Below, one piece after another: positions 34,798-50,978 of a stretch of 64,000 nt of DNA (within the stretch, counting starts at the first letter, position 1; each line of letters starts with the position of its first letter). The notes under the pieces were generated by a model that saw only the letters and a program-made list of their open reading frames with translations, did no database searches and had not been told where the DNA came from. This stretch comes from a virus. The stretch is from positions 32,001 through 96,000 of IMG/VR virus record IMGVR_UViG_3300016476_001599; one strand, written 5' to 3'. Both the position numbers and the translations under genes were made by a program.

Positions 34798-35190
34798 CTA
34801 GCGTTGGCTGCTGACATGGTTCATTTTGCAATCGACAAACTCCGGTTGTTGAACCAGGTTCGTGATTTCGTTTTTAATCGCGACTCGTTCCCGGTTGTGG
34901 TTCCGGATAGCAACAGCGCGTTTGCCGATTTCGGCCAGACCTAGTTCCAGGTCTAGCCCTCTTCGCAGGTCGTATTCAAGATCCCACATTTTACCGTTGA
35001 TTTTCTTCAGGCGGAAAATAAGATCCAAAAGCTCCGCATTGTCGTTGTCGACACCTTCTCGCAGGTAGCTAATTTGCTTCGAAAGCAGCTGTTTGTCTAC
35101 TTCGGTTTCGGACAATCGTTCCATCTTCAGTTCTGCGATCGTTAGTCTGTCGCAGAGTTCGTTTATTGGCATTGGGATAGTTTTGATCAT
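34798..35190 (-). CDS. DUF6165-like coiled-coil protein
   Basis: ELCDRLTIAELK...INGKMWDLE..LR...N.ERVAIKNEI; start at 35190 or 35172. Confidence 0.65.
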   Translation of the reverse strand: MIKTIPMPINELCDRLTIAELKMERLSETEVDKQLLSKQISYLREGVDNDNAELLDLIFRLKKINGKMWDLEYDLRRGLDLELGLAEIGKRAVAIRNHNRERVAIKNEITNLVQQPEFVDCKMNHVSSQR

Positions 35191-36298
35191 GTTTAGAAAA
35201 ATTTTAGCTGTTAGTGATTTGCATTTGTCGGACACTATTTGGAAACACCGGCCTATCCATGGAGACAGTTACCACAGCTGGAACTACATTGTGCAATACG
35301 CTGTGACGTCGGGCGTTGACGCTGTAATTCTAGCGGGCGACATCTTGGACAAGCAACTAAATGTTGCAAATCCGGTTGCGAAGCTGAACGCTGGGCTTCT
35401 GAAGCTGCGGGACGCCGGAGTGACCGTGCTTTACAATCAAGGACAGCATGAGTTCCAACGCGACTTGCCTTGGATGGATGTGGCCGACTTGGGTGCAAAG
35501 CATTTAAAGGGAACGTCTGACTTCTGCTTTTCGAACGGCCTTCGGATAGCTGGATTCGACTACTGCAACGAGAAAACTCTTGCGGAAAGGCTGGGTGAAA
35601 TCGCAAAGGATTCTGGACAAGAGTATTTTCTTGTCTGCCACCAGGTCTGGAAAGATTTCATGGGTGACGTTGGAAAGACGCAAGGTTGCTTTGACGATCT
35701 GCCCGCAAACGTCAGATTTATGCTAACTGGCGATTTCCACCAAACGATTGTTCGCGAGGTTAGCAAAGATTTGACGGTTTTAAGCCCCGGAAGCACGCAT
35801 TTGCGTAGCTTGGCGGAGCCGGCGGAAAAGCATTTCTTCGAAATAAGTGTTAAGCAGAAAGGCTTGTCGATTGAAGTCCGCGACATACCGACTCGAAGGT
35901 ACTTGGAAGTCAAAACAGGTACTTTGCCGTACTTACAGATTTCTGAGCAGGTTAAAACGTTTGTCGGACAAGATTTCGGCGATCTCCCGGAGGAGCTGCG
36001 GAAACCGATTGTTCGAATTGTCCACGGCAAGGATGATTTTGACTTTGTACGGCACATCAAAGAGAGTTTTGACAACCTTGCTCATTTGTTTTTCAAGCTG
36101 AAGACGATTTCTGTTGACGTTTTAAGCGTGGACACCACTACGGACGAGAGCCATTTGACGCTTCAAGCTTGTTTGCCGTTTGAGATCGACCCGCAGGGAT
36201 CGCCTGCGGCCTATGGTTTGGCGTCCGAGCTTTTGGCGGGTGCGGATCCGAACACTGTACTTGAACGTTGGTTAGAGGAGAATTTAAATGCAAATTGA
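35189..36298 (+). CDS. sbcD: Mre11/SbcD-like metallophosphoesterase nuclease
   Basis: SDLH, GDILD, GQHE, HQ, GDFH, SPGS; adjacent to SbcC. Confidence 0.85.
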   Translation: MFRKILAVSDLHLSDTIWKHRPIHGDSYHSWNYIVQYAVTSGVDAVILAGDILDKQLNVANPVAKLNAGLLKLRDAGVTVLYNQGQHEFQRDLPWMDVADLGAKHLKGTSDFCFSNGLRIAGFDYCNEKTLAERLGEIAKDSGQEYFLVCHQVWKDFMGDVGKTQGCFDDLPANVRFMLTGDFHQTIVREVSKDLTVLSPGSTHLRSLAEPAEKHFFEISVKQKGLSIEVRDIPTRRYLEVKTGTLPYLQISEQVKTFVGQDFGDLPEELRKPIVRIVHGKDDFDFVRHIKESFDNLAHLFFKLKTISVDVLSVDTTTDESHLTLQACLPFEIDPQGSPAAYGLASELLAGADPNTVLERWLEENLNAN

Positions 36299-38429
36299 GA
36301 CGGTTGAGCTGAAGAACATAGGTCCCCACAGGGAGTTAACCGCAGAGTTGGCTTCTGGCATTGTCGGCATAGTCGGCGCCAACGGTGCGGGTAAGAGTTC
36401 GTTCGTGAACGCCATCTACGCCGCTTTTACGGGCGATTTCAAACGTTTCAATGCCGCAACAAAGGCTGAGGTCATTAACAATCAGGCAGCTAAGCACGAA
36501 AAGGCTTGGATTAAGATTGTTGGCAACCACGGCGGTAAGCCGTTTGAGCTGGTTCGAAGCCTGCGACCGAACGAGGTGACCTTCACATACGGCGACAGTG
36601 AGATCGAGACGGCTTCGCAGGTCAACGACGCAGTTTTCAAGCTGCTGGGCCTGACTCCAAGCGTTTTTGATCGTTACGTGTTCGTCGAGCAGTGGGAAAT
36701 GTTTAGTTTTCTCGATGATACGGAAAGCGTGCGAGCTAAAGCTTTTCAGCACTTGTGTGGGGTCGAGTCGGCTACTCTGTTACATAAGGCTTGCGTGCAA
36801 TTCCGGGACAGGCTCACGGCAAAACAGTCGATTGACAACAGCTTAGACCTTGAAAGCAACATTGATCAGATTCAGCGGGAAATGCTGCGACTTAAGCGTA
36901 CGAAGTTTGAAGGCTTGCTGTCTAACGATGAGGCAGCTGAATTGCGACAGAAGCGGGATCTTTATCTAAAAGTTTCGCAGCTTGAGTCGCTTAAGTCGCA
37001 GGGACTTGTTGATCTCGAAGCATTGAAAAATGTTCTAGTCGACAAAGAGAAAGTTTTCGAGGCTGTGGAAACAAAGTTTAACAGAGCTGAAACCTGGTTG
37101 AAAAAGTACAAGACTTTGATTGAAGCTGCTGTGGGTACTCTACGTGACTGGCAGGCACAGAGAGCGCTTCAATCCAAGCAAGTAAATTGCCGCTCACTTA
37201 TTGGTGACTGGGAGTCGAAGGTTGAAGCGACCGAGGCAGAAATAGCTTCGCACGTTGCAAAAGCTCCAAGCTTTTCAAAAGAGGAACTTGCGGGCTTGAA
37301 AGCAGAACTTCAAGGTTTAAAAACAAAAGCGAAGGAGTTAAAAACCGCCGCCAGTAACTTGGAGCAAGGCAGTCGGGCTGTGTGTTCTTCGTGCATGCAA
37401 GACATTCCTGCGTCTCATTTGGTGAAATTAAAAGCTGAAGCGGACGCTGTCGAAAGGTTGGCAGTGGAGAAAGCAAGACAGCTCATGACCTTACAGAACT
37501 ATTACGACCGCGCGGAATATCTGCTTGAGTTACGAAGAGAGCAGCAAGGTCTTTTAACAAAATACCAAGCGGAGTTGCAGGGACTGTCGCAGGTTTCGCA
37601 GTCGCTAGTAACGCAAGATGCGGCAGACAGGGCAACGGCAGCCATCGAGCAGCGTAAAAAAGCGGAAGCGTCGCTTGCGGAGAGCAAACCGAAGCGCGAC
37701 AGGTTGAAAGCGGAATTAGACGTGCTGAGAGGCCGCTTATCGAATGCTGAAAGTCAGCTGCAAGAGTACGAGTCTCAGCTTGCAGCTTTGACAACGCATC
37801 TCGGGGCGGCTGACGCGTCGATACAGGCGAAGCTCGAACGTCACGACGAGGCTTTACGTCAAAAGGCTGCGGTTTCTGCGGAGTACAAGACTAACGCAAC
37901 TCAGTTGGGTATTTTGCAGACGACGTTGAATAAGCTGAAAACCTCGCTTGCCCGCGAAGCCAAGACCAGGTCGTTGGCCGAAGTAGTGGACAGGGTCGCT
38001 AACGCTTTTCATTGGTCTGGGCTGCCTAAGCGGGTAGCGCAGAACAATTTGATGCAGTTGGAAGCGGACATTAATGCGCAGCTCGAGCTTTTCAGTTCTC
38101 CTTTTTTGGTTGAAACAACTGACGATCTATCTTTCAAGGCGACTTTCCCAGGCAAACCCAGCGTGTCGGCAAGGCAGCTCAGTGGCGGGCAGAAAGTTAT
38201 CTTGGCCATTGCTTTTCGGGCGGCTTTGGATAGGCTTTTCGGGCATAATATTGGAATGTTGTTTCTGGACGAACCTACGGCGGGATTGGACGCAGACAAC
38301 GTTGCTTACTTCCATGACGCGATGCAGAGCTGGTCTGCAAACGTCGGGGCGCAGAAGCAGATTATTGTCATCACGCACGTCCAAGACATGACAAGTGCCT
38401 TTGACCAAATTGTAACGATCGATAAATGA
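36288..38429 (+). CDS. sbcC: Rad50/SbcC SMC-like ATPase
   Basis: GANGAGKSS, coiled coils, CSSC zinc hook, LSGGQ, LDEPT, ITH. Confidence 0.92.
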   Translation: MQIETVELKNIGPHRELTAELASGIVGIVGANGAGKSSFVNAIYAAFTGDFKRFNAATKAEVINNQAAKHEKAWIKIVGNHGGKPFELVRSLRPNEVTFTYGDSEIETASQVNDAVFKLLGLTPSVFDRYVFVEQWEMFSFLDDTESVRAKAFQHLCGVESATLLHKACVQFRDRLTAKQSIDNSLDLESNIDQIQREMLRLKRTKFEGLLSNDEAAELRQKRDLYLKVSQLESLKSQGLVDLEALKNVLVDKEKVFEAVETKFNRAETWLKKYKTLIEAAVGTLRDWQAQRALQSKQVNCRSLIGDWESKVEATEAEIASHVAKAPSFSKEELAGLKAELQGLKTKAKELKTAASNLEQGSRAVCSSCMQDIPASHLVKLKAEADAVERLAVEKARQLMTLQNYYDRAEYLLELRREQQGLLTKYQAELQGLSQVSQSLVTQDAADRATAAIEQRKKAEASLAESKPKRDRLKAELDVLRGRLSNAESQLQEYESQLAALTTHLGAADASIQAKLERHDEALRQKAAVSAEYKTNATQLGILQTTLNKLKTSLAREAKTRSLAEVVDRVANAFHWSGLPKRVAQNNLMQLEADINAQLELFSSPFLVETTDDLSFKATFPGKPSVSARQLSGGQKVILAIAFRAALDRLFGHNIGMLFLDEPTAGLDADNVAYFHDAMQSWSANVGAQKQIIVITHVQDMTSAFDQIVTIDK

Positions 38430-39250
38430 CAGATAGACAAACCGTTTGTTTGCACGCAGACTCCAACGGCGACGTTTGGAGTCTACAGGCCGGAAAAGGC
38501 ATAGTTAAACCCAGGTTTGACGTGTTACACGCGTCAGACTTTTGGGTTGTAGGCCTGCCGTCGAACTATGCAATCCTGACGGAATTGTATTTCGACACTG
38601 TAAGGCGTTACAAAGCGAACGAAAAAAGTCTCTCCAGCATATATGTCGGCTCGGTTTTTCCTTGGCGTCATTTTGACTATAAGTCTAAGGATTTCCTGTA
38701 TGACGTTGTCGCAGTTTCGCCTGCCAAGCGGCAAGCTTCGCATTGGCACCTTCTGGACGATGCATCCATCAGCACGTACTTACTTGCTAAAAGTCTATAC
38801 GACGCATCTTACGAAATGGCGGAATTGGCCTGGCAAAACCATTGTTTAGCCCCTGTTTTTTCGAGACTAGGATGCGATGCAAATTTAGATCCTGCGATGT
38901 TTTTGGTTGCTGACATTTTGGATCCCCGTTGGTTCATGGCAGCAAACGGAAGTTTCAAGGCTTTGGAGCGGTACTTTGGGCTTCAAAAGAAGGCGCACAG
39001 ACTGGCAGACGCGAAATTTTTCATGTTGTCGGACGCCGTTAAAGCGATACCTGGCAATAGTTTTTTGCACGCGGAGGCCGAGGTCAGGAATCCGAGAGAC
39101 AAGCTTTTTGCGCTGCCTAAATTGTTTTTGCATTTTTTTGTGCGGCACTGGCTTTCGTGTCAAACGCGACTTTCGTTTTTCGATCCGTCTTTGTTTTTCA
39201 AAAGTCAGAAAGCGAAGAAAATGTACTCGACTATTTTTGAGCCACAGTGA
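38426..39250 (+). CDS. IS110/Nop-like domain protein (Tas-like), apparently non-catalytic
   Basis: NHCLAPVF..LG...AMFLVADILDPRWF......LERYFGL and C-terminal KLFLHFFVRHW; no P..SG serine loop and no obvious DEDD RuvC motif. Confidence 0.55.
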   Translation: MTDRQTVCLHADSNGDVWSLQAGKGIVKPRFDVLHASDFWVVGLPSNYAILTELYFDTVRRYKANEKSLSSIYVGSVFPWRHFDYKSKDFLYDVVAVSPAKRQASHWHLLDDASISTYLLAKSLYDASYEMAELAWQNHCLAPVFSRLGCDANLDPAMFLVADILDPRWFMAANGSFKALERYFGLQKKAHRLADAKFFMLSDAVKAIPGNSFLHAEAEVRNPRDKLFALPKLFLHFFVRHWLSCQTRLSFFDPSLFFKSQKAKKMYSTIFEPQ

Positions 39251-39729
39251 CAGAGTTTATCGCACGCTTACAATTTGTTTCGCCTTGCCTGGGCAATGCT
39301 AAAGAACCCGGGTCGGGAAGGTTTTTGTTTAGTAGAAATCGCGAAGGAAAGATAGTTTTCTTGCCTGCTTGGCACAGATCGAACATGGTGATGGCAGCCA
39401 ATTTGATATCAGACTATCGCGAAGAAGTGCGACGTATTCTGTGGGGCATGGTGGTCGAGGTAGAGCTACGTGACAAACGCTGGCATCGAATTTACTATAC
39501 GAATGCTGCAGGCAGGGAACGTTACTCTGTTCACGAGTCAATCGCTGCGGGCCAGTTGGCAGAAATAAGCCTTTCGCTTCCTGAGAACCTGCCGGTCGAT
39601 GCTTTTTCGCGTTTGCTGGGAGTTGCAGGTAAGCACAAAGGCCTATCACCGTGGCAACCCGGCACGTATGGTCACTACAGGGTTGTTGACGTGTTTGCGA
39701 GACCGACTCTGTTTACGGATAGTGAATAA
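39247..39729 (+). CDS. Minimal RAMP-superfamily-like (Cas7/Csm3-like) protein
   Basis: FIARLQFVSPCLG first strand, HESI..G...EISL, G-rich loop AG.HKGLSPWQPGTYGHYRV. Confidence 0.55.
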   Translation: MTEFIARLQFVSPCLGNAKEPGSGRFLFSRNREGKIVFLPAWHRSNMVMAANLISDYREEVRRILWGMVVEVELRDKRWHRIYYTNAAGRERYSVHESIAAGQLAEISLSLPENLPVDAFSRLLGVAGKHKGLSPWQPGTYGHYRVVDVFARPTLFTDSE

Positions 39730-39760
39730 AAAACCACCCGAGTTGTGACCCTCGGGTGGT
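39728..39760 (-). terminator. Intrinsic terminator oriented for a minus-strand transcript (may be bidirectional)
   Basis: Perfect 10-bp stem ACCACCCGAG/CTCGGGTGGT; A6 on its left side (U6 on the minus strand), no T run on the right. Confidence 0.7.
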
Positions 39761-39833
39761 AATTGGCTTAGCTGTCGTCGTTGCAGCTGATTCCATTTTA
39801 GCCGAAACCCTTTTACTTACAATGGGACACAGG

Positions 39834-41369
39834 ATGGGTAAAGAAGTTGTTTTGATAAAAAACGGGAACATTTTGCTTGTGGACCCGGGCGTTGTAGACC
39901 CGAAAATAGTGGAGATTCTGGGGCCCAAACTTAGTTTCGAGTCGTTCCGTAAGCTGGTCGGTCGTGAACTGTACGACGCAAAAAGAAACGGTTTAAAGAC
40001 CTTCGCTATTGATCGGCACATTCTTTTCGAGCTTGATTTCAAAGGGAGAGTTGCAGCTCCGTTTGGTTTTTGGAAGACTGTGTCGGATACATTGAAGTCT
40101 GCAGGATATGCCGTTCGTTATCACGACAACACCCCGACTGTCGTGAATCAGCAGCACAAGGCAGCAAAAAACAAAGCGTTACGTTTCGAGATATTCATGG
40201 ACAACATCGCGGATTATCAGTTGCGGGATCATCAGCCTGAGTTTTTGAACGCGATCATTAAAAACAGCTGTGGTCGTATAGACTGCGCACCTGGCTTCGG
40301 TAAATCGTTTATGATTGGAATCGTGGCTTCCGTTTTTCCGCGGGCAAGAATAGACGTCGTGTCCAAGCGGGTAGCTGTTTTGAGGGACAGAATTTATCCG
40401 GAGCTGACTTCTATGGTCGGCGATGTGGGTATCGTGGGCGGCGGAAAAAGCATTAAAGACCGCCGAGTGATGTGCTACACGGCTAACTCGTTGAAGCACA
40501 GCAAGGCGGATGCGGACATACTGATCGGTGACGAGTGTCACGAGCTTGCTGCGGATAAAGCGTCGGAAGAGCTGATACGCTATCAGGACAGTCGAAATTA
40601 CGGCCTGTCGGCTAGCCATGACGTTCGTTACGACAACAAGGACTTACGGTTAGAAGGTATATTCGGTCCCATTATTTACCGTGTTCCGTACCAGACGGCG
40701 CAAGGCTCAGGGCTTGTTGTGCCCATCGAAATACGGTGGACAAACGTCAAATTAGACTACAATCCTTGTGCAGGCGTAGACACAGACGACTCGGTAAAGC
40801 GTAAACGCTTCGGTATTTGGACTAACGAGCTGCGTAACATGGCTATCGCCAATGACGCGAGATCTTACGACAAGGAAACGCAGGTTCTAATCACGGTCGA
40901 CACAATTACTCACGCTTTTCACCTGAAGAAGCTGTTACCTGAATTTACACTGGTGTACGCTGACGAGGGTCTTACGCCCGAGGAGTTGCAGAACTACAAG
41001 CGGCAGAAGTTTTGTTCTGCAACGGAGCCGCTGATGGATTTCGCGAGGAAAAAAATGTTGACGCAAAAATTCGAGAAAGGCGAGCTCAAGAAAGTGATCG
41101 CGACAACGGTTTGGAATGTTGGTGTTTCTTTCAATAACTTGGCTGTGCTTGTCCGAGGTAATGGCGGCAGCAGTGCGATCGACAGCACGCAGATTCCTGG
41201 CCGAGTAAGTCGCATTGCGGAGGGTAAAACTTTCGGTATTATCCACGACTACCTTGACGGGTGGGATAAAGGCTTTGACCGCCAAACCAGAGGGCGGCTT
41301 AAGGTTTATCGCCAACACGGTTGGGTGCAGAAATTTCCTGACTCGCAGCTTGAAAGGCTCTATTCTTGA
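39834..41369 (+). CDS. Superfamily 2 DExH helicase (UvsW/XPB-like)
   Basis: APGFGKS, DECH, SAS, QIPGRVSR; start at 39822 or 39834. Confidence 0.88.
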   Translation: MGKEVVLIKNGNILLVDPGVVDPKIVEILGPKLSFESFRKLVGRELYDAKRNGLKTFAIDRHILFELDFKGRVAAPFGFWKTVSDTLKSAGYAVRYHDNTPTVVNQQHKAAKNKALRFEIFMDNIADYQLRDHQPEFLNAIIKNSCGRIDCAPGFGKSFMIGIVASVFPRARIDVVSKRVAVLRDRIYPELTSMVGDVGIVGGGKSIKDRRVMCYTANSLKHSKADADILIGDECHELAADKASEELIRYQDSRNYGLSASHDVRYDNKDLRLEGIFGPIIYRVPYQTAQGSGLVVPIEIRWTNVKLDYNPCAGVDTDDSVKRKRFGIWTNELRNMAIANDARSYDKETQVLITVDTITHAFHLKKLLPEFTLVYADEGLTPEELQNYKRQKFCSATEPLMDFARKKMLTQKFEKGELKKVIATTVWNVGVSFNNLAVLVRGNGGSSAIDSTQIPGRVSRIAEGKTFGIIHDYLDGWDKGFDRQTRGRLKVYRQHGWVQKFPDSQLERLYS

Positions 41370-42163
41370 TGTTTTCAAAGCCTCCAAAACCCTCAAACAG
41401 ATCTAAGGCCGTTCCCGCCGCAAACGCTTCAAACGACAACCTTTCAGGGCATGTTTTGCTGTTCAAGCGGACGTATATCTTAGAGCGTCGAGTCTTAGAC
41501 ATGTGTCGATCAGAGGGCGACGCTCCTGTGTACAAGCCTGCGGCCAGTCTTGACGGTGGTAAACGCTACAACACGCCGGAAGAGAAAGAGAAGCAGAACA
41601 GCTGGGAATCGGCTTACCGTGCAGTTGCTGCCATCTGTAAGCCTGCCACGCCGATCGAGTACGTGCGTATATTGTTCAACTCGCTACGGTCTAGTTCGTT
41701 GGCGACTCCGACTGTGTTGCAGTTGGCTTCGGCGGCTAACGCACAAATTGTGCGAGACTACGCAAAAGACGCATTTAAACGACTTCAGTCGAGTTTTATA
41801 ACGGATTCGGCTAGAGCTAAAACGGAAATACTTTTGCGGCTGGGGGGAAAATCCGGGACTAGGCAGGCTACGTTTACGGCGATATATTGCACCCTGCTGG
41901 ATGCACGTTTGGGTCTATCCCCGCTTTACCGTTATTGTTTAGCGACGGATGCACTTAAAAAAGCACAGGACGAGCGTAAAGCTGGTGTGAACATGGATTT
42001 TAGAATTTCGCGTATGGAAACCTACGTGAAAGACTTGGAATTCTTGGCAGCTTTCGACTATACCGTTTTTCCGGAAATTTACAGTTCGGTTTACGGAAGT
42101 AGTTTGCCGTCTGGGTTTAAAGAATTGGCTTTGTCCTTGGTGGATTCCGCCCGGGACGTTTAA
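41366..42163 (+). CDS. Hypothetical protein in the replication module
   Basis: 265 aa; coupled to the helicase. Confidence 0.65.
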   Translation: MMFSKPPKPSNRSKAVPAANASNDNLSGHVLLFKRTYILERRVLDMCRSEGDAPVYKPAASLDGGKRYNTPEEKEKQNSWESAYRAVAAICKPATPIEYVRILFNSLRSSSLATPTVLQLASAANAQIVRDYAKDAFKRLQSSFITDSARAKTEILLRLGGKSGTRQATFTAIYCTLLDARLGLSPLYRYCLATDALKKAQDERKAGVNMDFRISRMETYVKDLEFLAAFDYTVFPEIYSSVYGSSLPSGFKELALSLVDSARDV

Positions 42164-42174
42164 AGGAAATCGTC

Positions 42175-43869
42175 ATGAGTGGGCAGCAAAAAGTGCTGTC
42201 AGAAGCTCATTTGAAACTCTTTTTGGCTGTCTTGTTTCGCAACGAGCAAGTATTCGAGAGTTTCAAATCAAGCCTGACAGCGAGTCATTTTGACTTTGCA
42301 GGGTATCAACTGCTCTACAAGGTTGTTTGGGATTATTTTAATGAAAATCAATGTCTTCCAGATTTGTCGCAGATCAACGCGGACATTGCCAGCTACATCG
42401 AGAATGAATACTTCTCGCTGGACGATGCCGAGTACGACGCGTTAGACGATTTTTTGTACTACGCTTTCGACCCTGGCCTGTTCAAAGAACCGGACGGACC
42501 GAAAAGCGTCAAGGCGGAAAATTTCGCTTTTAACTTTGCGACTAAGTTTTTGCTGGAGCAGCAAAAACGAGCCGCTATTTCTCAGCTAAGTGACCTCAGC
42601 GACGTTGGTCAATTGCCGGCTATTTTCCAACAGGCTACAGCTCAAACCGAGTCGTTGATGGGTTTGTCGGTTTCCGGAGGCAGAAACCTGACGCTTCCGG
42701 TTGGTTGGGATAAAAGGGCCGGTGTCTACTTAGAGTCATGCGGTGTCAGTTTCTTGGATACCTTTCTCGAGGGTGGAACTGCTCCGGGCGAAGTTTATGG
42801 CGTGCTGGCGCCATTCGGATCCTACAAGACTACTTTGGCTGTGATGCTTTGGTACGCTGCAGCCGAGCAAGCGTGTAGCAAGTACTTGAGCGGAGAGTCG
42901 AACGGTAAAAAGGGTTTGTCGGTTCTCGTGTCTTACGAGGCTCCGTTGCAGGACGAGTTGAGGGATCGTCTGCTGATGTATGCAGCGAGGATTTCCCGGA
43001 CGCGTCTTCAAGCCATGGGTACGAACGGTGTTTCTATATTTGGAGTCGACCCGGAGTCGCCGCAAGATTACGAAAAGATTCTTTTTAAAGAGCAGATAGC
43101 GAATGGTGTTTTTGAGCCGGAGATGCAGCGTTATGAACGAGTTTTGCCGGTCGTTAACGAGCACACAGTTTGTCTTGATTTCACCGGTAGGCACGAGAAA
43201 TTTAAGACGGCGGGTAACCGCGGCGTGTCGGAAATTGTGTCGGCCATAAAAGCGGAATTAAAGAGGTGCGGGCCGGATTATTATATCTCGACTGTAATCG
43301 TTGATTACGTTGGTCTCATGGTTCAAAGGGATGTGACGGTTGATCCCAAGGAAAAACAACGTGAGGACAAGTTGTATCAGCTCGCAGGATTGCAGCTTGT
43401 CAATCGGGTGGCTATGCCTTTCAACACGCCGGTTTGGGCATTTCACCAGCTTTCTGGTGAAGCGAATGCCGTTTTGAATCCGGCAAAAAGGATGGATCAC
43501 ACGCAAGCGAAAGGTTCGAAAAGCTTTGCCGAGAACCTTGCGTTTTGTTTTGTAGGTGGACGTTTAAACGACGATTACATGGGTCAACTTTGTTGCTCTA
43601 AGCATCGTCGCGCGGGCCAGCACAATCCTGTTTTGTTGAAAGTTGACGGTTCGTTCAACATGGTTACGGCCCCGGAAGGCTACACTATTGATCGGCTTGG
43701 AAAAATTGTCCGGAAAGACAGCTTAGGCGCTTCAACCATCTTGTCACCAGACGTCTTTAATGTAGTTCCAGGTATGGCTGCATCCGATGCCGATCCTTTT
43801 TCCGACTACGATGAAGAAAGTAATATGGATTATGCTTCGGAGCAAATTTCAAATTTAAGCGAAGAATAG
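42175..43869 (+). CDS. DnaB-like replicative helicase
   Basis: FLD.FLEGGTAPGEV, APFGSYKTT, SYE, IVDY, HQL; immediately upstream of primase. Confidence 0.75.
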   Translation: MSGQQKVLSEAHLKLFLAVLFRNEQVFESFKSSLTASHFDFAGYQLLYKVVWDYFNENQCLPDLSQINADIASYIENEYFSLDDAEYDALDDFLYYAFDPGLFKEPDGPKSVKAENFAFNFATKFLLEQQKRAAISQLSDLSDVGQLPAIFQQATAQTESLMGLSVSGGRNLTLPVGWDKRAGVYLESCGVSFLDTFLEGGTAPGEVYGVLAPFGSYKTTLAVMLWYAAAEQACSKYLSGESNGKKGLSVLVSYEAPLQDELRDRLLMYAARISRTRLQAMGTNGVSIFGVDPESPQDYEKILFKEQIANGVFEPEMQRYERVLPVVNEHTVCLDFTGRHEKFKTAGNRGVSEIVSAIKAELKRCGPDYYISTVIVDYVGLMVQRDVTVDPKEKQREDKLYQLAGLQLVNRVAMPFNTPVWAFHQLSGEANAVLNPAKRMDHTQAKGSKSFAENLAFCFVGGRLNDDYMGQLCCSKHRRAGQHNPVLLKVDGSFNMVTAPEGYTIDRLGKIVRKDSLGASTILSPDVFNVVPGMAASDADPFSDYDEESNMDYASEQISNLSEE

Positions 43870-43890: not shown

Positions 43891-44991
43891 GTGACAGACA
43901 ACAAACCCTTGAACGTGTTGCTTTATAATCGAATCAAAGCGACGTTTAAGAACGTCAGAATAAGCCATCAAAACGAGAAGCAAGAAAGAAAGCTACGAAT
44001 TGATTTTCTTACTAACCGCGAAATGATCGACATACGGAACTGGGGAGAGTCTTATTCCGTTTGCTGTCCTTTCTGCAATGATACTCGTTTCCGTTGCGTG
44101 ATAAATCACAGATACGGGACGGTTGACGAGCATAACCGGGTTCAATCCAGACTCGTAGTTTGTTTTAACGCCGGTTGTCCGTTGGCGTTGAAAAACCCGG
44201 AATGCTATGACCGTCTTGAGCAGATGCTTACAGGGCGAAAACTTTTTGACCTTGCTAAAGCGGAGATAGCTGTCGGCAGCGCGTTGAACATTGATAATTT
44301 CAGGATGAATTGGCCCGGTGATGTCATTCGTGTCGACAAGCTTCCGGACGATCATCCGGCGACCTTGTGGCTTGCGGGAGTGCGAGGTTTCAACGTAAAG
44401 CGACTGGGAACATATTACAACGTTCACTGGTGTGACAAAAGCAAGCATGCTTTGTGCAGGGACCGAATCGTCATACCGATTTACATGAACAAGAAGATGG
44501 TAGGTTTTCAAACAAGGCCTCCGTACGATACGGACTGGAAATTGGCAAGCGTTCCAAAGTACTACACCGCAAAGGGTACGCCCAAAAGACAGATAATTTA
44601 CAACCTGGGGAATATGATGAAATGCGAGACCGGAATCGTTGTAGAGGGGGTTACGAGCGTTTGGCGGGGCGGTGATCAGTTCGGTGCGATACTCGGTTCA
44701 GCTGTGACGCCGGCTCAATATGATTTGCTTGTAAAACACTTTAAAGACCATTCTGTTGTTTTGCTGCTAGACCCGGATGTTTTTCTGGAAAGCGCGAAGC
44801 GTAAGGTTTTGGACAGCTTGATGACGGTGGAAAAACGATTGAAGTCTGATTTGAAAGGCGGTTGCTGTTCGGTTTGGTTACCGGAGGGAACCGACCCGGC
44901 AGATTTTGACCCGGCTTTCCTTAGGGAATATATCGCTAATGCGGCGGCTGAGCAGGGTGTCACAGTTTCGTGGAGGAAACGCAATGGCTAG
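43891..44991 (+). CDS. DNA primase (zinc finger + TOPRIM)
   Basis: CPFCND, RIVIPI, PKYY, VVEG, LDPD, DPAD. Confidence 0.85.
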   Translation: MTDNKPLNVLLYNRIKATFKNVRISHQNEKQERKLRIDFLTNREMIDIRNWGESYSVCCPFCNDTRFRCVINHRYGTVDEHNRVQSRLVVCFNAGCPLALKNPECYDRLEQMLTGRKLFDLAKAEIAVGSALNIDNFRMNWPGDVIRVDKLPDDHPATLWLAGVRGFNVKRLGTYYNVHWCDKSKHALCRDRIVIPIYMNKKMVGFQTRPPYDTDWKLASVPKYYTAKGTPKRQIIYNLGNMMKCETGIVVEGVTSVWRGGDQFGAILGSAVTPAQYDLLVKHFKDHSVVLLLDPDVFLESAKRKVLDSLMTVEKRLKSDLKGGCCSVWLPEGTDPADFDPAFLREYIANAAAEQGVTVSWRKRNG

Positions 44992-47900
44992 AAAAATAGA
45001 AAAGCTCGGCGGTATTGTTAGTTCTTCCGGCAAGTTAAGCGTGGCCGAACAAAGAACCAAGCTGGCACATTTGGAAAAAATATTGAAGGGGTCGGAGATT
45101 TACGGGTTAGACTCGCCAGGTCTGCCTACGTTGTATGGTGGAAGCGCCTTTCTACAGTACGCGCAGGCAAAAGGCGACGACAGCGATTCTTTCATGTATG
45201 ATCTCGTAAGGGCCGCTCTCCGCGACAGTTCGTTTGTTTTGCCGGTTGAAACTGCGGCGCATCAGACGAAAGATGCTAAGTTCTTGCCGGGCCATTTGTG
45301 GGGTTCTACCGTAGAAGGGCCCAGGCGAGCCAAGATCATGATCATTAACAAAAACCCTTGGGTTTTGTCGATGAAAAACGGTCGTTGTTTCGCCGACGAA
45401 GACGGAAAAATCCTCATGGATATTTTTGCAAGTTGCAAAATGACGAACATTGGAAACATTTACGTCACGCATCTTGTGAAATTTATGCCGCCAAACGGCA
45501 AGACAACGTTTAGAGCCCAGTGGGTTAAAGACGGCGCCTATCTTCTGGCGCACGAGATAAAAATCGTGCAACCGGATTATATTTTGTGTCTGGGGACCGA
45601 CGCCAGCAAAGCACTGCTGGGAGACGGTCATGGTGTTAACGACATGCTGGGCAAGGTCGTTAAATACCGTTACAACATAGCGCTGGACGCAAGGGACGCA
45701 GAATCGAGCTGGCTTGAAGCGAGTGTGATGACCGTAGTTCATCCGCGTCAAACTGCGAGGGACCAGTCGGCCATTCGCGCGTTGGAGAACGGGCTAGCCT
45801 CTTTCGTCAATTTGACGCAGGGTAAAAGCATTAGCTTCGACACTAATGTAGATCACAACGTTGTTTCTTCGTTCGACGAATTGATTTACTATTTCTCGGA
45901 AATCGACAAAGATTACGACCCGGTCGAGGAGGTTATTTCGGTTGACGCAGAGTGGAACGGACAGCATCCAATTAACGAAGGTTCGTACATGCGAACAATT
46001 CAGCTCGCATGGAAACCTGGCAAGGCTATTGGTATCATTCTGCATCTTGCAGGAGGTGCCGTTAATCCGGACATTGATGCTAAAAACAATTCCGAGGTTA
46101 CGGCATTGTTTAATGCTTTTTTCAAAGGAGGCAGTGTAACAGTCACGCGGGAAGACGGTTCGGAAGCTGTTCTGAAGTTCAAACGTAAGCGTGTGGTCGG
46201 TCACTTTTTCAACGCTGACTTGGAGTGGCTTGTCGACTATGGGATAGATATTCAGGAGTGTTTTTCGTGCAAGCTCTACGACTTGGTCCTGCCGAGTTCT
46301 GACGCTGTACCTAAAGCATCAAAGCGACTCTTTAATTGCTATCTTGAAGACGGATTTAAGCCGGGAGAAACTGTTCCAGCGTGGTATCGTACGAAGTACG
46401 AGGGCGGGGCAGACACTGGCTTAATGTGCCACGCAATAGAGGAGACGGCTAACTATAAGTTGGAGCTTCTTGCGGCCAGGTATCTTAATTCCCATAGGTA
46501 CGACGCGGAGTTGCAAGAGTGGAAGACGAGCTACTGTAAACAAAAAGGGCTGTCCTCCGAGTCACTTGAAGGTTACGGCGAATGTCCGGACAATGTTCTA
46601 CTGCCTTACGGCATGTGGGACGCGGATGTTACGCTTCGTCTTTACTACAAGTTTAACCCGCTGCTGGATAGCGATTACGACGGTAACTGTTGCAGGGAAG
46701 CTTTCTGGGAGGCTCAAATTGCAACGCCGGCTGTGCTTGACATCCACCGCAGCGGTATGACTCTTGACAGATCGCGTGTCGATTTTTTGACGGTTCAATT
46801 TATCGACGGTCGAACCGCTTTAGAAACCAAGATACGCGAAAGCTTAAATTGGCCGGACTTCAATATTCGGTCATTAACGCAGGTCCGAGAGGTTCTTTTC
46901 GGGCACCTGCTTAACGGCAAGCGTGATCCTGAAACAGGTGGTCCCGTTCGCGTGCGACCAGCCGATGCAATTTCTTTAAACCTTATGCCGCTTTACGATA
47001 CAAGTAAACCGCCAAAGCCATGGGAAGAAATTCGGCAGAAAAACGTTGAAAGTCAGCACAGTCCTTGTACTAGCAAACAAGTTTTGTCCATCTTGGTGCA
47101 GACAGTTTCCGACGCGAAAGCGAGAGAAGTGCTTGGTATGCTGCGAGATCACCGTTTTCTTGATCAAGCGCTGAAAACGGTTTTAAGGCCGCCGAACACC
47201 GACCCGTGTACGCACGAAACCTGTTATGACGAGGATGGCAACATGGAGTATGCCAAAGGTCTCGCCGCCTCTTGCTGTTCTGATGGAAAAATTAGGACGC
47301 ACATATATCAAACGAAGGAGACCGGAAGGTGGTCGAGCGCTAGGCCCAATTTGACGAACATATCGAAAAAGCGGGACAAGGACTTTAAACGCATTCTGGG
47401 CAGCAAGTACAAGTACAAACTGCGAAGTATCTTGAAAGCCTCTCCGGGCCATGTGTTTGTTGAAGCGGACTATGTTGGTGCAGAGCTTTTCGGTATGGCG
47501 GTTATGTCTGGCGACACGGCTATGATCGAGCATGCGAGGCGTAACCAGTTGGAGGACACGCACCCTAATTACTATGACATTCACTCGAATGTGGCAGTTA
47601 ACGCCTTCAAGCTGAAATGCCCTCCGACCAAAAAAGGACTGGAACAGATCAAAAAGGACCACCTTCGCAACGTGGCAAAGTCTGTTATCTTCGGCATAGC
47701 TTACGGTAGAGGCGCAAAGGCTATTTCGGTGGGTGCTAAGGAAGAAGGTATCGATATCTCGGTAGACGAGGCAAAGGCGGTTATTAAGACCATTTTTGCA
47801 ACGTACCCGAAACTCGTACCTTTTTTCGAGGGTTGCAAGGAGCGTGCACGCGGTTACTACCTGGATAGCAATCATCAACCTGTTCCCGTGCCGCGATACC

Positions 47901-48505
47901 TGTGCAACTGTTTTGGGCGATTTAGGCGTTTTCCGGATAGCTTCGGCGCCAGCGATTTGGAATCCGAGTTTGAACGGCAAGCTATGAACTTCCCGATTCA
48001 AAGCATGATCGCCTCGGTGGCGAGCAGAGCCGTCGGTTACTTGATCGACTACAGGAACAAACAGATCAAGCTTGGTCATAATATGTTCAAGCTGCTTCTG
48101 CAAATCCATGACGCACTAATCTTGGAGGTTCCGTATCGCTACGTTAAACACGTGTGCGAGTATGTCATTCCTACGTACATGCGAAAAGCCGTCCCGATTT
48201 TCCCAACGCACATTAGCGGTGCGCTCGAGGGTGAGCCTACAGGTGCAGGTCCCTTTTATCTTGGTATCGAGGGGGAGGTGACTACGAACTGGGGCGAGCG
48301 TATATTTGACGCGGACGCTAAAAGACTTGGTTTGCCTGTAGGGCGTGGCGTTGTAGATGGCTGCGTTGTGCACTATAGTCAAACGCCGAAAGCGGGCGAA
48401 GAGCGATCGGTCGTAGACGTCTCGAAACCTCGTGCTAAGCGAGACATAACGCCTCCAGATCCGTATGTACCTGGGAAGTTCAAGGCATCAAAACGTAGGC
48501 GATAA
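44984..48505 (+). CDS. polA: Family A DNA polymerase with N-terminal UDG-like domain and 3'-5' exonuclease
   Basis: Exo DAE / HFFNAD / YGMWD; TGRWSS; motif A DYVGAE, motif B RNVAKSVIFGIAYG, motif C QIHD; UDG-like YVTHLVK, EIKIVQP..ILCLG, HP. Confidence 0.92.
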   Translation: MARKIEKLGGIVSSSGKLSVAEQRTKLAHLEKILKGSEIYGLDSPGLPTLYGGSAFLQYAQAKGDDSDSFMYDLVRAALRDSSFVLPVETAAHQTKDAKFLPGHLWGSTVEGPRRAKIMIINKNPWVLSMKNGRCFADEDGKILMDIFASCKMTNIGNIYVTHLVKFMPPNGKTTFRAQWVKDGAYLLAHEIKIVQPDYILCLGTDASKALLGDGHGVNDMLGKVVKYRYNIALDARDAESSWLEASVMTVVHPRQTARDQSAIRALENGLASFVNLTQGKSISFDTNVDHNVVSSFDELIYYFSEIDKDYDPVEEVISVDAEWNGQHPINEGSYMRTIQLAWKPGKAIGIILHLAGGAVNPDIDAKNNSEVTALFNAFFKGGSVTVTREDGSEAVLKFKRKRVVGHFFNADLEWLVDYGIDIQECFSCKLYDLVLPSSDAVPKASKRLFNCYLEDGFKPGETVPAWYRTKYEGGADTGLMCHAIEETANYKLELLAARYLNSHRYDAELQEWKTSYCKQKGLSSESLEGYGECPDNVLLPYGMWDADVTLRLYYKFNPLLDSDYDGNCCREAFWEAQIATPAVLDIHRSGMTLDRSRVDFLTVQFIDGRTALETKIRESLNWPDFNIRSLTQVREVLFGHLLNGKRDPETGGPVRVRPADAISLNLMPLYDTSKPPKPWEEIRQKNVESQHSPCTSKQVLSILVQTVSDAKAREVLGMLRDHRFLDQALKTVLRPPNTDPCTHETCYDEDGNMEYAKGLAASCCSDGKIRTHIYQTKETGRWSSARPNLTNISKKRDKDFKRILGSKYKYKLRSILKASPGHVFVEADYVGAELFGMAVMSGDTAMIEHARRNQLEDTHPNYYDIHSNVAVNAFKLKCPPTKKGLEQIKKDHLRNVAKSVIFGIAYGRGAKAISVGAKEEGIDISVDEAKAVIKTIFATYPKLVPFFEGCKERARGYYLDSNHQPVPVPRYLCNCFGRFRRFPDSFGASDLESEFERQAMNFPIQSMIASVASRAVGYLIDYRNKQIKLGHNMFKLLLQIHDALILEVPYRYVKHVCEYVIPTYMRKAVPIFPTHISGALEGEPTGAGPFYLGIEGEVTTNWGERIFDADAKRLGLPVGRGVVDGCVVHYSQTPKAGEERSVVDVSKPRAKRDITPPDPYVPGKFKASKRRR

Positions 48506-48510
48506 ATAGA

Positions 48511-49182
48511 ATGTTGCTTTGTATCGAAGGCATTGATGGTTCGGGCAAAGGAACCATCACCGAGTTGTTAAAGGAGCACTTTGACCGGGCCGGCAAGAAA
48601 ACGCAGTTGTTTTCCTTTCCGGCTTACTGCAAAAACGCTTGGAGCGAGCTCATCGGAAAGTACTTAGACGGCCAATTCGGACTTTTTCCGATAGAGGTGC
48701 AAGCCGCTTTGTTTGCGTTAGAGCGGCTTCACTCTAGGGAGGAGCTGAAGGCTGCATTAGCTTGTAATGACATTGTCTTTTGTGACAGGTATGTTCCGAG
48801 CAACTTGGCTTACGCTGCTGCTGGCGTAGAAAAGGAGAAAGAGCAGCAGATCATTAAATTGATTTTGGATTTAGAGTACGAACAAATGGGTTTACCTCGT
48901 CCCGACGGAATTGTTTTCATGGACATGCCGTTGGATTTGGCTATCAGCAACGTCGCTAAAAAGCAGGGGAGACGCTACACAAAAAACGTCCTGGATCTGC
49001 TTGAAAGACAGCGAGAGCTGTTGCATAATGTCGCTGGCTTTTACGCGCAAATGCAGCAGTGGCACCCTGATGCCAAGTTTTTGCGGGTCGATTGCACAAC
49101 TGGCGAAAAGCAGGACGATTTGAGGTATTTTCCAGATTTAGTTTCAGAAGTTGTTTCATTCATTCAGAGTTTTTTGGAGTAA
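48511..49182 (+). CDS. tmk: Thymidylate kinase
   Basis: IEGIDGSGKGT, FP.Y, DRYVPSNLAY, PDG. Confidence 0.9.
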   Translation: MLLCIEGIDGSGKGTITELLKEHFDRAGKKTQLFSFPAYCKNAWSELIGKYLDGQFGLFPIEVQAALFALERLHSREELKAALACNDIVFCDRYVPSNLAYAAAGVEKEKEQQIIKLILDLEYEQMGLPRPDGIVFMDMPLDLAISNVAKKQGRRYTKNVLDLLERQRELLHNVAGFYAQMQQWHPDAKFLRVDCTTGEKQDDLRYFPDLVSEVVSFIQSFLE

Positions 49183-49184
49183 AA

Positions 49185-50978
49185 ATGCAAGGACAAAACC
49201 GACTACGACCGCGTTCCAAGGCCGCCACAGCGAGAAATCTTCTTCCTCCTGATGATAACGGAGCCAATTCGCCGCGGAACAATCATTTCATCAACAAAAA
49301 CGCCAAGAACGTCCGTCTTATTCAGCCTGATTGCTACAAGAAAGGCGGTCTGCTTTCAATTCGTATCTGGAACATGTTAAACCCAGAGAATCCGGTCGAT
49401 CTGATGAACGGACGAACTTCGCAGTACGATACGGCGGGGTTGGAAGGTGTTTCGATTTCCGAGCCGGTGTTTGTATGCAGCTACGCAGGCGTGAACCGTA
49501 AAACTGATCGCATCATCGGCCACGATGAAAAGGATTGCAACCCGGTCAGCTACATCATTGCGAGAAGCAAGCAGCACGTCGTCGAAGGCGTCGATTTTTG
49601 GGAGGAGCCTTACGTTAAGTTTTGCAAGGTCGCCAAAGACGCGCACCAAAGTGGACGATTTTCGCAAAACCGCAAGTGGGACCCGGACTGGAACTGTCTT
49701 TTGCCCGCCACGATGAACAAGGCTATTTCTCCTTGGAAGCAGCAGTACTTCATCGTCGGATCGGTCTACAACAACGGCCCGAATTTGGATTTAATACGTG
49801 AGTATTCCAGTTACGAGAAAAACGGTAAGGTTGTTGAGAAAGAGGTCGCTCGTGACGGTGTTCCATTGGGTGATGCCGCAGAAGATCCGGTTCCGTTGAT
49901 AACGGTGTCGGCAAGCGCTGGGCGTAAGCTTCTAGAGCTGATGGTCCGAACAAAAGAGAAGTTCCAAGGGGACCCGGACGTTGATCCTGCAGTGATGTAC
50001 AAGTACGGCGACCCCTGCGGTAAATTTGACGCGGCCACACGCACTGTCAAAGGAGGTGTTTTCTTCCATCTTTTCAATCCGGATACGTTTGTACCGGACA
50101 AGACGGATCCTGTGCACAAGCAACTGGCAGGCAACACGACTTATGTTTTTGCGGCCAAACAGCCAGACGCCAAAAGTTCGAAACTGCAGAAGGGCGGCGA
50201 GCAGGTAACGCTTTACGAGGCTGCTGTAACCAACGGCATCAAGGGGCCAAAAGGCTTGGTGCTGCGACCTGATCTAAGCACGGAACAGGTCAACAACATC
50301 ACGTCGAAACACCTTTTCTTCTGGAAGGACTCGGATCAGGATCCAGCGGATTCCTTTTTCCTGGCCGAGCCATCGATTGAAGAACGCTGTATTTGGATTG
50401 CTAACGCGTTCAAATTCGTTCCAAATTTGGTAAAACTCTGTTGGATGAGCAACCCCGAGTACCTGGCATTTGACGCGGTTAAAGCCGTTTTGAACAATCG
50501 TACGCAGGTCGTTGTTCCGGATTACAATCCCGAGCCAGAGGAGGAGGACTTGCAGCCTACTCCTGTTGCGACACCGTCTAGTCGCAGCACAAGGCAGCCT
50601 AAAACGCAACCGGTTGAAGATGTTCCTTTTGAGGACTTTGACACTGTGGCAGATGCGACTGTTTCGCAGGTTTCGGTGGAAGATCCAGCCGGATTGGACG
50701 CGGAGGACCTGATGGATTCTTTCGAAAACGAAGGTGAAATCGAAGCCGAACTTGATGACCTTGAAGTCGGCGAGGGTGGTGAGATCGTCGAACAGTTTCA
50801 GCAGGTGGAAGATTTTGAAGACGAGGTTTCCTCGGACTTTGACATGCCATCTGACGGCGAGTCGGTCGAAACCGACGAAAACGAAGTTGACCCTTTCCAA
50901 GCTAGCGTCAACAAAAGCATGGCTGCGGCCAAGGCGATCTCCCGCTCCGCGTCGCGGGGATCGAAGCCTAAGGCCTAG
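49185..50978 (+). CDS. Putative single-stranded DNA-binding / recombination protein with long acidic tail
   Basis: Lies between tmk and RecA; very acidic C-terminal region; function inferred from context. Confidence 0.45.
   Translation: MQGQNRLRPRSKAATARNLLPPDDNGANSPRNNHFINKNAKNVRLIQPDCYKKGGLLSIRIWNMLNPENPVDLMNGRTSQYDTAGLEGVSISEPVFVCSYAGVNRKTDRIIGHDEKDCNPVSYIIARSKQHVVEGVDFWEEPYVKFCKVAKDAHQSGRFSQNRKWDPDWNCLLPATMNKAISPWKQQYFIVGSVYNNGPNLDLIREYSSYEKNGKVVEKEVARDGVPLGDAAEDPVPLITVSASAGRKLLELMVRTKEKFQGDPDVDPAVMYKYGDPCGKFDAATRTVKGGVFFHLFNPDTFVPDKTDPVHKQLAGNTTYVFAAKQPDAKSSKLQKGGEQVTLYEAAVTNGIKGPKGLVLRPDLSTEQVNNITSKHLFFWKDSDQDPADSFFLAEPSIEERCIWIANAFKFVPNLVKLCWMSNPEYLAFDAVKAVLNNRTQVVVPDYNPEPEEEDLQPTPVATPSSRSTRQPKTQPVEDVPFEDFDTVADATVSQVSVEDPAGLDAEDLMDSFENEGEIEAELDDLEVGEGGEIVEQFQQVEDFEDEVSSDFDMPSDGESVETDENEVDPFQASVNKSMAAAKAISRSASRGSKPKA

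Follow-up and report, generated by a model that had tools for sequence, protein, structure and literature searches.

A predicted compact TasR-like protein and a predicted minimal RAMP between SbcC and an SF2 helicase in a large-phage replication module

Why should a phage place two proteins that resemble guide-RNA-binding effectors directly behind its Mre11–Rad50 genes, in sequence that holds no guide array? The question is raised by a 64,000-nucleotide stretch of viral DNA (hereafter the window), which comprises bases 32001–96000 of a 118,846-nucleotide IMG/VR virus record with a CheckV completeness of 55%. Between sbcC and the gene for a superfamily 2 (SF2) helicase, the plus strand of the window encodes a protein of 274 residues (X, 38426–39250) and another of 160 residues with a GTG start (Y, 39247–39729). 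A preliminary description, made from the letters alone, had guessed at a Nop/IS110-type fold for X and a minimal RAMP for Y, and had proposed that the two extend an Mre11–Rad50 operon into an undescribed RNA-linked system. Our favoured explanation, to which we give somewhat less than an even chance, is that X and Y are exapted relatives of guide-RNA-binding families which now act, without an array, as an RNA- or RNA–DNA-hybrid-binding accessory of recombination-dependent replication.

The fold of X points clearly towards one family. Five relatives of X were found by single-sequence search and 250 (E ≤ 1e-3) by HMMER over 1.84 billion representatives. The AlphaFold2 (AF2) model, built from an alignment of 87 sequences over which all family counts for X are given here, has a predicted local distance difference test score (pLDDT) of 92.2 and a predicted TM-score (pTM) of 0.89. 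It predicts an N-terminal RNase H/RuvC-like domain (residues ~1–110) followed by a helical Nop-like C-terminal domain (~112–272). The only matches at E ≤ 1e-3 in a Foldseek search against the PDB were two chains of the TIGR-TasR structure 9mty. Structural comparison by VIA aligned 227 residues of chain 9mty_B with model residues 5–272 (Z 11.8, root-mean-square deviation 4.7), and this was the sole chain with Z ≥ 8 among the 48,161 covered by the wide VIA search. Next in rank came TasH (21kl_A, Z 7.9, over model residues 115–272) and the IS110 protein ISCro4 (PDB 9t56, Z 6.5), whose combination of RuvC-like and helical architecture aligned over 215 residues. The guess of a Nop/IS110-type fold is thus borne out, although the IS110 match is much weaker than that to TasR and the DEDD residues of IS110 are not conserved in X. 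On its model, X is a Tas-family-like protein of the compact TasR type.

Sequence profiles lead to the same family from a greater distance. The NCBIfam model NF052498 (TIGR_Tas_endo, ‘TIGR-Tas system RNA-guided endonuclease’) is matched at E ≤ 1 by 31 of the 87 family members, at best with an E value of 6.1e-7. The family member P0209 scores 11.8 bits against a model cut-off of 100 bits; the tie is one of homology rather than equivalog level. One member of the 87 matches the IS110 model NF033542 (E 0.02), while none matches the Pfam Nop or IS110 models; other Pfam matches in the family are scattered and at chance level, and the ESM Atlas returned nothing useful for X.

Whether such a protein would still cut DNA depends on its RuvC site, the columns of which we placed from the secondary structure of the model and the alignment rather than by superposition of active sites. 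Read in this way, the family keeps D12 in 60 and H10 in 70 of the 87 sequences, an Asn at the start of helix 1 in 85 and a Ser after strand 4 in 60, and no Glu is conserved among the 87. The best-kept residues lie instead in the Nop-like half: P167, R168 and W242 are invariant, W169 is present in 85 sequences, and D166 and H139 in 82. As far as the alignment can tell, the RuvC acidic residues of X are not conserved, and the nuclease site would be degenerate. The longest helix in the model spans 22 residues (226–247), the aligned 9mty span exceeds X by about 50 residues, and the coiled coil is probably absent. With the acidic residues lost and no long coiled-coil helices, X most likely binds nucleic acid without cutting it.

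The fold of Y was approached in the same way. Its relatives numbered four by single-sequence search and 186 by profile search at E ≤ 0.01, none of these 186 with a Pfam domain or a name. The AF2 model, from an alignment of 63 sequences over which the family counts for Y are given, has a pLDDT of 95.5 and a pTM of 0.87. It predicts a single RNA recognition motif (RRM) in 160 residues with the topology b1-a1-b2-(hairpin 79–99)-b3-a2-G-loop-b4, in which strands 2 and 3 are parted by a beta-hairpin insertion and a glycine-rich loop (128–142) comes before the last strand. Foldseek found 131 PDB matches at E ≤ 1e-3, and all of the rows listed are RAMP subunits of type III, VII or III-E CRISPR effectors. 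The best is 8yhe_E (E 8.2e-7, TM 0.63), and the top matches comprise type VII, III-A, III-B and III-E subunits (E 8e-7 to 8e-5, TM 0.6–0.68). By VIA, the best matches are the Csm, Cmr and gRAMP subunits 9g9a_G (Z 11.9, root-mean-square deviation 3.7, 145 residues aligned), 6s6b_I (Z 11.7) and a gRAMP Cas7 domain (Z 11.0). Ranks 1–42 are all CRISPR-Cas RAMP entries (Z 11.9 to 6.0), the first unrelated fold appears at Z 6.0, and the RAMP matches cover Y residues 1–160. The minimal RAMP envisaged in the preliminary description therefore holds up, and the fold searches that it had recommended for both predicted structures lead, by Foldseek, to TIGR-TasR for X and to CRISPR RAMPs for Y.

With the Cas7 group (Csm3, Cmr4, type VII Cas7 and the Cas7 domains of gRAMP), which it matches by VIA at Z 9–12, Y shares the RRM core, the hairpin insertion and the glycine-rich loop. 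Fourteen positions are invariant among the 63 sequences: L15, F38, W42, N46, R92, H96, E97, P112, G128, G132, S134, P138, G142 and R152. By contrast, the Asp of the Csm3-type loop has no conserved counterpart in the loop after strand 1 of Y, since position 20, presumed to match the catalytic Asp of Csm3, is Asp in only 19 of the 63. Single-stranded RNA is the most likely ligand of Y, which would hold it with its glycine-rich loop and beta-hairpin.

In sequence, Y has a different nearest neighbour. The Vipr protein of SUSP1 (36pp_D) is its only sequence-level relative among solved structures (hmmsearch E 0.12). Aligned with hhalign to a Vipr profile of four sequences (SUSP1, LESphi2, Vibrio 1.266.O and Gordonia Pipp), the Y family reaches a probability of 86% with an E value of 5.1e-6 over only 57 columns, which take in strand 3, helix 2, the G-loop and strand 4; against SUSP1 Vipr alone the probability is 35%. 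In the ESM Atlas Y falls among unnamed viral clusters, with a PF03787 RAMP cluster at 0.77, below the lead threshold. Taken together, the model and these profiles make Y a predicted minimal RAMP whose structure is nearest to the Cas7 group and whose sequence appears nearest to the Vipr lineage. Like Vipr, it is a phage-encoded single-RRM RAMP with a G-loop and a thumb-like hairpin, lacks a second RRM and stands in a two-gene unit with a putatively DNA-interacting partner; it is shorter, with 160 residues against 195.

The same evidence bears on an explanation that needs no RNA, in which X and Y are protein-only accessories of DNA repair. X would then bind DNA of particular structure or act as a weak nuclease of the RNase H/RuvC class, and Y would be a subunit that binds single-stranded DNA or bridges, much as NurA and HerA act beside archaeal Mre11–Rad50. 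Archaeal herA-mre11-rad50-nurA operons combine Mre11–Rad50, for the resection of ends, with a helicase and a protein of the RNase H fold. The position of X and Y, fixed between SbcCD and a helicase, speaks for such a role, as do the frequencies of D12 and H10 given above and the want of a universal RNA partner, described below. Residues 1–110 of X also match, by VIA, the RuvC domains of TnpB and Cas12 and RNase H-fold resolvases, the latter including RuvX/YqgF and the poxvirus and mitochondrial enzymes at Z 4.6–5.6. However, the full-length match to TasR stands far above these resolvase matches, X is Tas-like rather than NurA-like by fold, the helicase belongs to SF2 and is not HerA, and the locus has an additional RAMP. 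We disfavour a protein-only role because conservation centres on the Nop-like half of X, and not its RuvC-like half, and on the RAMP G-loop of Y; the conserved features of Y, its G-loop and hairpin, bind RNA in every solved relative listed. It is an improbable explanation, if one that deserves to be taken seriously.

The genes that X and Y follow are those of a phage Mre11–Rad50 pair. The gene for the Mre11-like nuclease SbcD (35189–36298, plus strand) encodes 369 residues from the ATG at 35189, which opens MFRKILAVSDLHL, within a longest open reading frame (ORF) of 35093–36298, and matches Pfam Metallophos (1.8e-5) and the SbcD-like phrog_1649 and phrog_100. The gene for the Rad50-like ATPase SbcC (36288–38429, plus strand, 713 residues) matches Pfam SMC_N (3.3e-20), AAA_23 and SbcC_Walker_B (2.5e-7), and phrog_77 (2.8e-45). 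A calcineurin-like phosphoesterase nuclease gene thus adjoins a gene for an SMC-like ATPase with a Walker-B match, as expected of an Mre11–Rad50 pair. SbcD and SbcC overlap by 11 nucleotides, SbcC and X by the ATGA at 38426–38429, and X and Y by the GTGA at 39247–39250, so the chain of overlapping stops and starts reported in the preliminary description is confirmed by the ORF coordinates, including both junctions. Through these overlapping codons X and Y are predicted to be co-translated with SbcC. The SF2 helicase claimed to lie directly downstream is also there (39822–41369, plus strand), with matches to Pfam ResIII and Helicase_C and to phrog_16 (2.5e-39). The in-frame ATG at 39822 is most likely its start and gives a protein of 515 residues.

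We followed X and Y through related uncultured phages from two anchors, in contigs of up to 234,886 nucleotides: 33 loci were found through Y, and 80 through the helicase, so that the larger set is independent of X and Y. In all 33 Y-anchored loci SbcD and SbcC lie upstream and the helicase directly after Y, with DnaB, primase and PolA further downstream; X is present in 31. In the helicase-anchored set, the contigs of which were not de-replicated and in which several rows are clearly the same phage, X is found in 78 of 80 loci and Y in 66, in every case between SbcC and the helicase. Both are present in 65, which answers the synteny check proposed in the preliminary description in favour of conservation, and 61 have the full order SbcD-SbcC-X-Y-Hel-DnaB-Prim. 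Related contigs repeat both the four-nucleotide overlap of X and Y and the gene order, so the arrangement is not due to chance. Identity to the window copy falls as low as 29% for Y, and the X family is about 17–30% identical to the window X. The pair thus has the pattern of core genes of the module and not that of a patchy accessory system.

The exceptions are few. Among the Y-anchored loci, one has SbcC followed by Y and lacks X over 16 kb, in another two short ORFs occupy the place of X, and a third keeps X 3.3 kb upstream of Y. Among the 80 helicase-anchored loci, X occurs alone in 13, Y alone in one, and neither in one. In 11 of these 13 no Y gene can have been missed, because the gap between X and the helicase is below 80 nucleotides; X abuts the helicase in most of the 13. 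On a 51,696-nucleotide IMG/VR contig (L028 / L063) X has been lost and Y follows SbcC directly, with Y and the antisense small RNA discussed below both kept. Many relatives also carry an extra ORF of about 230 residues between SbcD and SbcC (L008 1766–2470, L028 5190–5876), which is absent from the window phage, where the two genes overlap.

This fixed position also bears on the idea that X and Y are counter-defence decoys, which would soak up host CRISPR RNAs (crRNAs) or tigRNAs or poison host effector complexes. Phages do carry Cas-derived inhibitors, and Y does resemble the Cas7/Csm3 backbone subunits. Counter-defence genes are, however, usually variable and expressed early, whereas X and Y are fixed in a replication module over deep divergence and apparently coupled in translation to SbcC. 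Neither protein matches Pfam or PHROGs at permissive thresholds, and neither matches PADLOC, although that library consists of defence and not counter-defence models. We regard a decoy function as very improbable.

Much the same reasoning applies to a third alternative, in which X and Y form a working, programmable hybrid of TIGR-Tas and VIPR directed against competing phages or the host, with guides encoded elsewhere and SbcCD and the helicase as effector nucleases. Both folds do derive from guide-RNA effectors. Interference systems are, however, usually patchy and found in variable regions, and X occupies one fixed place in all but two of the 80 helicase-anchored loci. It is because X and Y are near-universal at a fixed place that we disfavour the conflict readings in general. 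A programmable system would nevertheless need guides, and the sequence was searched for them.

No array was found in the sequence at hand, in keeping with the absence noted in the preliminary description. Of interspaced or tandem arrays in the window, Tandem Repeats Finder (TRF) reported just one, which codes for the repeats of a pentapeptide-repeat protein, and Rfam at gathering thresholds found no family there. Both strands of the 118,846-nucleotide contig contain no run of at least four YNNGG, at least five NNNGG or at least six YNNNG units, and degenerate repeat windows occur near the shuffle expectation, two pentapeptide-repeat coding regions excepted; long NNNNG runs are found only antisense to pentapeptide-repeat genes. 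A vrRNA in the contig was rejected in the absence of any YNNGG-type tract, and there is no second Tas-like gene in the contig. All of this holds for about 55% of the genome, the part present in the record, and an array could lie in the remainder.

The 15-nucleotide tandem repeat at 23953–24677 was considered as an RNA array and rejected as the coding repeat of the pentapeptide-repeat protein. This protein (23882–24916, plus strand) has about 48 A(N/D)LXX units, repeated every 15 nucleotides (TRF score 673), and a domain without repeats at its C terminus. A second pentapeptide-repeat gene lies at about 26.1–26.5 kb of the same contig (L015 ORF 4041–4775). On their antisense strands such genes give long runs of G with a period of five nucleotides, which might pass for vrRNA-like repeats.

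Just upstream of the window, at about 29.4–31.2 kb of its contig (L015 7427–9200), lie six tRNA-like elements with variable inserts (60–120 nucleotides). They start with GG(A/G)TCGGCGGCG, and five of the six close with the stem strand (A/C)TCCTGC(A/C)CGATCC, in most cases with a T-run behind it, whereas the sixth has the ending ...GGCCGGTCC. ARAGORN calls none of the six, its only tRNA there being a tRNA-Met at L015 5544–5618. These putative RNAs could offer X and Y an alternative source of RNA.

A nearer candidate lies directly after Y. The hairpin that was described as ending the operon is real, a perfect stem of 10 base pairs at 39733–39760, but it does not end a plus-strand operon. With an A-run ahead of the stem and no T-run behind it, the hairpin has the form of an intrinsic terminator for the minus strand. 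For these reasons, and because a conserved minus-strand promoter faces it, a role for the hairpin as a plus-strand operon terminator or as a Cas6-like processing site was dropped. On the minus strand the region comprises a sigma-70-like promoter (39795–39822), with TTGTAA as –35 element at 39822–39817, a spacing of 16 nucleotides and TAAAAT as –10 element at 39800–39795, overlapping the start region of the helicase gene. It is followed by a candidate small RNA gene of about 60 nucleotides (39728–39788), made up of a 5′ hairpin, a linker and the intrinsic terminator (the stem at 39733–39760 and a U-run), whose transcript would end near 39728.

Several lines of comparison support this candidate RNA gene. 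From the related loci, 25 distinct spacers between Y and the helicase were extracted, and of the 23 with at least 60 nucleotides used for the promoter count, 21 carry the motif TTGnnn-16/18-TAnnnT on the minus strand, whereas none has it on the plus strand. The RNA has a conserved length of 60–80 nucleotides across relatives and a common layout of 5′ hairpin, linker (CCGCUACAC in many), strong hairpin with a conserved loop, and U-run. Changes on both sides of the stem were seen in 9 of 11 terminator pairs (13 sequences) and in 13 of 19 pairs of a nine-sequence minus-strand alignment, these counts being taken from RNAalifold tables only. A covariance model (R1) built from the same nine sequences recovered 10 loci at E ≤ 5.3e-13, nine of them the training sequences themselves and the tenth (L024) coinciding with the training locus L023 in score and coordinates. 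Matches independent of the training set are weaker: the window (39726–39810, minus strand) at E 0.007, L019 at 0.016, L017 at 0.029 and L046 at 0.037. R1 matches once per locus, always on the minus strand at the Y–helicase position, and gave no second copy or array in 515,857 or in 1,198,637 nucleotides. Weaker plus-strand matches (E 0.049–0.44) correspond to the palindromic terminator stems of the same loci and to an ordinary terminator at 938–994 of the window. The small RNA gene is also seen at the same spot in L019, L021–L033, L043, L046 and others.

Two canonical plus-strand intrinsic terminators were noted elsewhere in the window, at 962–991 and 51003–51027. The stem of the first starts ACCACCCG, like the minus-strand terminator after Y, which suggests that a shared type of terminator is used in both orientations.

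The window Y is followed by a spacer of 92 nucleotides. Among the 66 Y-bearing helicase-anchored loci the spacer measures at least 80 nucleotides in 27, 25 of which have the promoter motif, and is shorter than 40 nucleotides in 37. The small RNA is confined to one sub-clade. The proposal that it is a general, obligate partner of X and Y was rejected, there being no room for it in those 37 loci. It is a candidate partner, above all for Y, but not one shared by the whole clade, and it might just as well regulate the 5′ region of the helicase gene from the antisense strand. By eye only, no box C/D (k-turn) motifs were seen in it.

The small RNA, the six tRNA-like RNAs some 40 kb upstream of the pair, coding sequence and the remaining 45% of the genome are the guide sources that may be proposed for the programmable hybrid. 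In its support, stem-loop tigRNAs may be encoded within genes or well away from tas (10.64898/2026.09.09.750476, in the part consulted), some VIPR types carry a single vrRNA (10.64898/2026.04.26.720920, likewise in part) together with nuclease or helicase accessories, and a unit of promoter, hairpin and terminator does stand directly after Y in nearly all of the loci that have room for it; the variable inserts of the tRNA-like elements and the incompleteness of the genome point the same way. Set against this, the small RNA occurs once per locus without an array and is excluded by position from more than half of the Y-bearing loci, there is no YNNGG-type tract, and the RuvC site of X looks degenerate. 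We therefore think a programmable weapon unlikely here.

We return to the explanation that we favour, the exaptation of X and Y as an RNA- or hybrid-binding replication accessory. In this scheme X and Y would be fixed parts of the phage SbcCD/helicase recombination–replication module rather than of a mobile, array-programmed interference system. They would form an array-less ribonucleoprotein, or a factor that binds RNA or RNA–DNA hybrids, and the X–Y complex would mark or hold a nucleic-acid substrate for SbcCD and the SF2 helicase during recombination-dependent replication; R-loops, primers and small phage RNAs are the substrates proposed. Prediction of an X–Y complex from the alignments of 87 and 63 rows scored 0.00, which is no answer and speaks neither for nor against binding. 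Among the sequencing runs listed as containing this sequence none is of RNA; one DNA run contains it in full and may be the source sample, and the others share small parts of it.

A number of observations weigh against this explanation and should be set beside it. A shared fold does not prove a shared function, and we infer, rather than observe, that X and Y bind RNA, each other or SbcCD and act with the helicase. The window X itself (P0003) has no TIGR_Tas_endo match at E ≤ 1 and none to the Nop or IS110 models; the X-family profile finds nothing at E ≤ 10 among PDB sequences; and RAMP models in Pfam or NCBIfam match none of the 63 members of the Y family, whose other Pfam matches are scattered and at chance level. 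The way in which the catalytic columns of X were placed, and the portion of the genome contained in the record, count on the same side. X and Y are also not strictly interdependent, as the loci with one gene alone make plain, and the small RNA at the Y–helicase position cannot be an obligate partner, given the loci in which the spacer is too short.

A more specific version of the favoured explanation can be imagined, in which an array-less Tas–RAMP ribonucleoprotein carrying one constant phage RNA, which could be the small RNA after Y, a transcript or a primer, forms or recognises an R-loop or RNA–DNA hybrid at a defined site and then recruits Mre11–Rad50 and the SF2 helicase to start or restart recombination-dependent replication. 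We hold this detailed scheme to be doubtful. If true, it would be the first time that RNA-binding modules of the TIGR-Tas type and the CRISPR/VIPR type work together, and the first in which either serves genome replication instead of conflict.

The genes further downstream fit the module. A conserved protein of 265 residues (41366–42163), which matches nothing in Pfam or PHROGs, follows the helicase and has a homologue at the same place in 30 of the 33 Y-anchored loci. Then come a DnaB-like helicase (42175–43869), a primase (43891–44991) and a family A DNA polymerase with an N-terminal uracil-DNA glycosylase (UDG)-like domain (44906–48505), all on the plus strand; phrog_19, phrog_47 and phrog_17 are matched across the DnaB, primase and polymerase trio, and the polymerase matches Pfam DNA_pol_A (4e-42) and UDG (5.1e-14). 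The polymerase has 1199 residues, with the UDG-superfamily domain at residues 137–289, ahead of the 3′–5′ exonuclease and polymerase domains. Pfam and PHROGs also identify a thymidylate kinase and a UvsX-like recombinase further on. These genes place the locus in a large-phage replication–recombination module, as the preliminary description had supposed. Before the UvsX-like recombinase lies a gene for a protein of 628 residues (49092–50978, plus strand) with no Pfam or PHROG family. Searches of 50,697 deposited phage genomes, by blastn with positions 35000–42000 and by tblastn with X, Y and a distant Y relative (P0078), returned no match, so no cultured relative is at hand.

How far, then, is this locus new? 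TIGR-TasR (PDB 9mty; Faure et al., 2025, PMC12045711, consulted in part) shares with X the full-length arrangement of an N-terminal RuvC-like and a C-terminal Nop-like domain, the phage origin and, distantly, NF052498. It differs in that X lacks conserved RuvC acidic residues and, probably, the coiled coil, has 274 residues against a span of about 320 in the 9mty chain, has no TIGR array that TRF or Rfam could find, and keeps a set position within a replication module, where its gene is coupled to that of a RAMP. The terms RAMP, Cas7, SbcC, Rad50 and Mre11 are absent from the text of that paper as available. Closer still is a long branch of compact TasR proteins without a coiled coil or detectable array, from densely packed viral genomes, for which the guide source is an open question, in a preprint that also reports repression of transcription by catalytically dead TasR and TasA proteins (Xu et al., September 2026, 10.64898/2026.09.09.750476, seen in part). 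X is likewise compact, array-less and viral, and its placement in that branch goes by description only; the passages on array-less TasR mention no RAMP neighbour, SbcCD or helicase.

For Y, the comparison is with the seven VIPR types described, in which a minimal RAMP of phage origin goes with a YNNGG vrRNA and with accessory vap genes that in some cases encode nucleases or helicases (10.64898/2026.04.26.720920, 2026, available in part). Our locus differs from VIPR in having no YNNGG, NNNGG or YNNNG tract in 118.8 kb and no long intergenic regions flanking Y, in the Tas-like partner of Y, and in its conserved replication module as against the lysogeny or accessory regions of VIPR. Neither of the VIPR preprints 10.64898/2026.04.26.720920 and 10.64898/2026.10.15.759431 contains the words Nop, TIGR or RuvC. 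From class 1 CRISPR systems the locus differs in that no array (by TRF) and no other cas gene was seen in the window, where no dedicated search of the contig for cas1 was made. In the portions of the literature searched on TIGR-Tas, VIPR and TasR with RAMP, no text has the pairing of a Tas-like protein with a RAMP or the Mre11–Rad50 context, both of which appear to be new, and one paper that includes both TIGR-Tas and VIPR uses them, in what was seen of it, only as reference structures. The claim of an undescribed system thus stands, within those texts, for the pairing and its context, and falls for the components taken singly, since the array-less compact TasR branch and the minimal phage RAMPs are already present in the two 2026 preprints cited above.

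In conclusion, TIGR-Tas (2025) and VIPR (2026) were each described as stand-alone, array-programmed phage weapons, and here both types of protein are predicted to be co-translated with Rad50 in a locus where no array was found. The locus bears on the role of the array-less compact TasR proteins, a question left open in the 2026 preprint, and offers a testable setting for it, with a RAMP, SbcCD, an SF2 helicase and, in one sub-clade, a candidate RNA. Should the pair bind no RNA, it would be a clean example of guide-RNA folds that have lost their guides. Should it bind RNA, two RNA-guided lineages thought to be separate would become linked, and folds that bind guide RNAs could be seen as open to domestication for DNA repair or replication.

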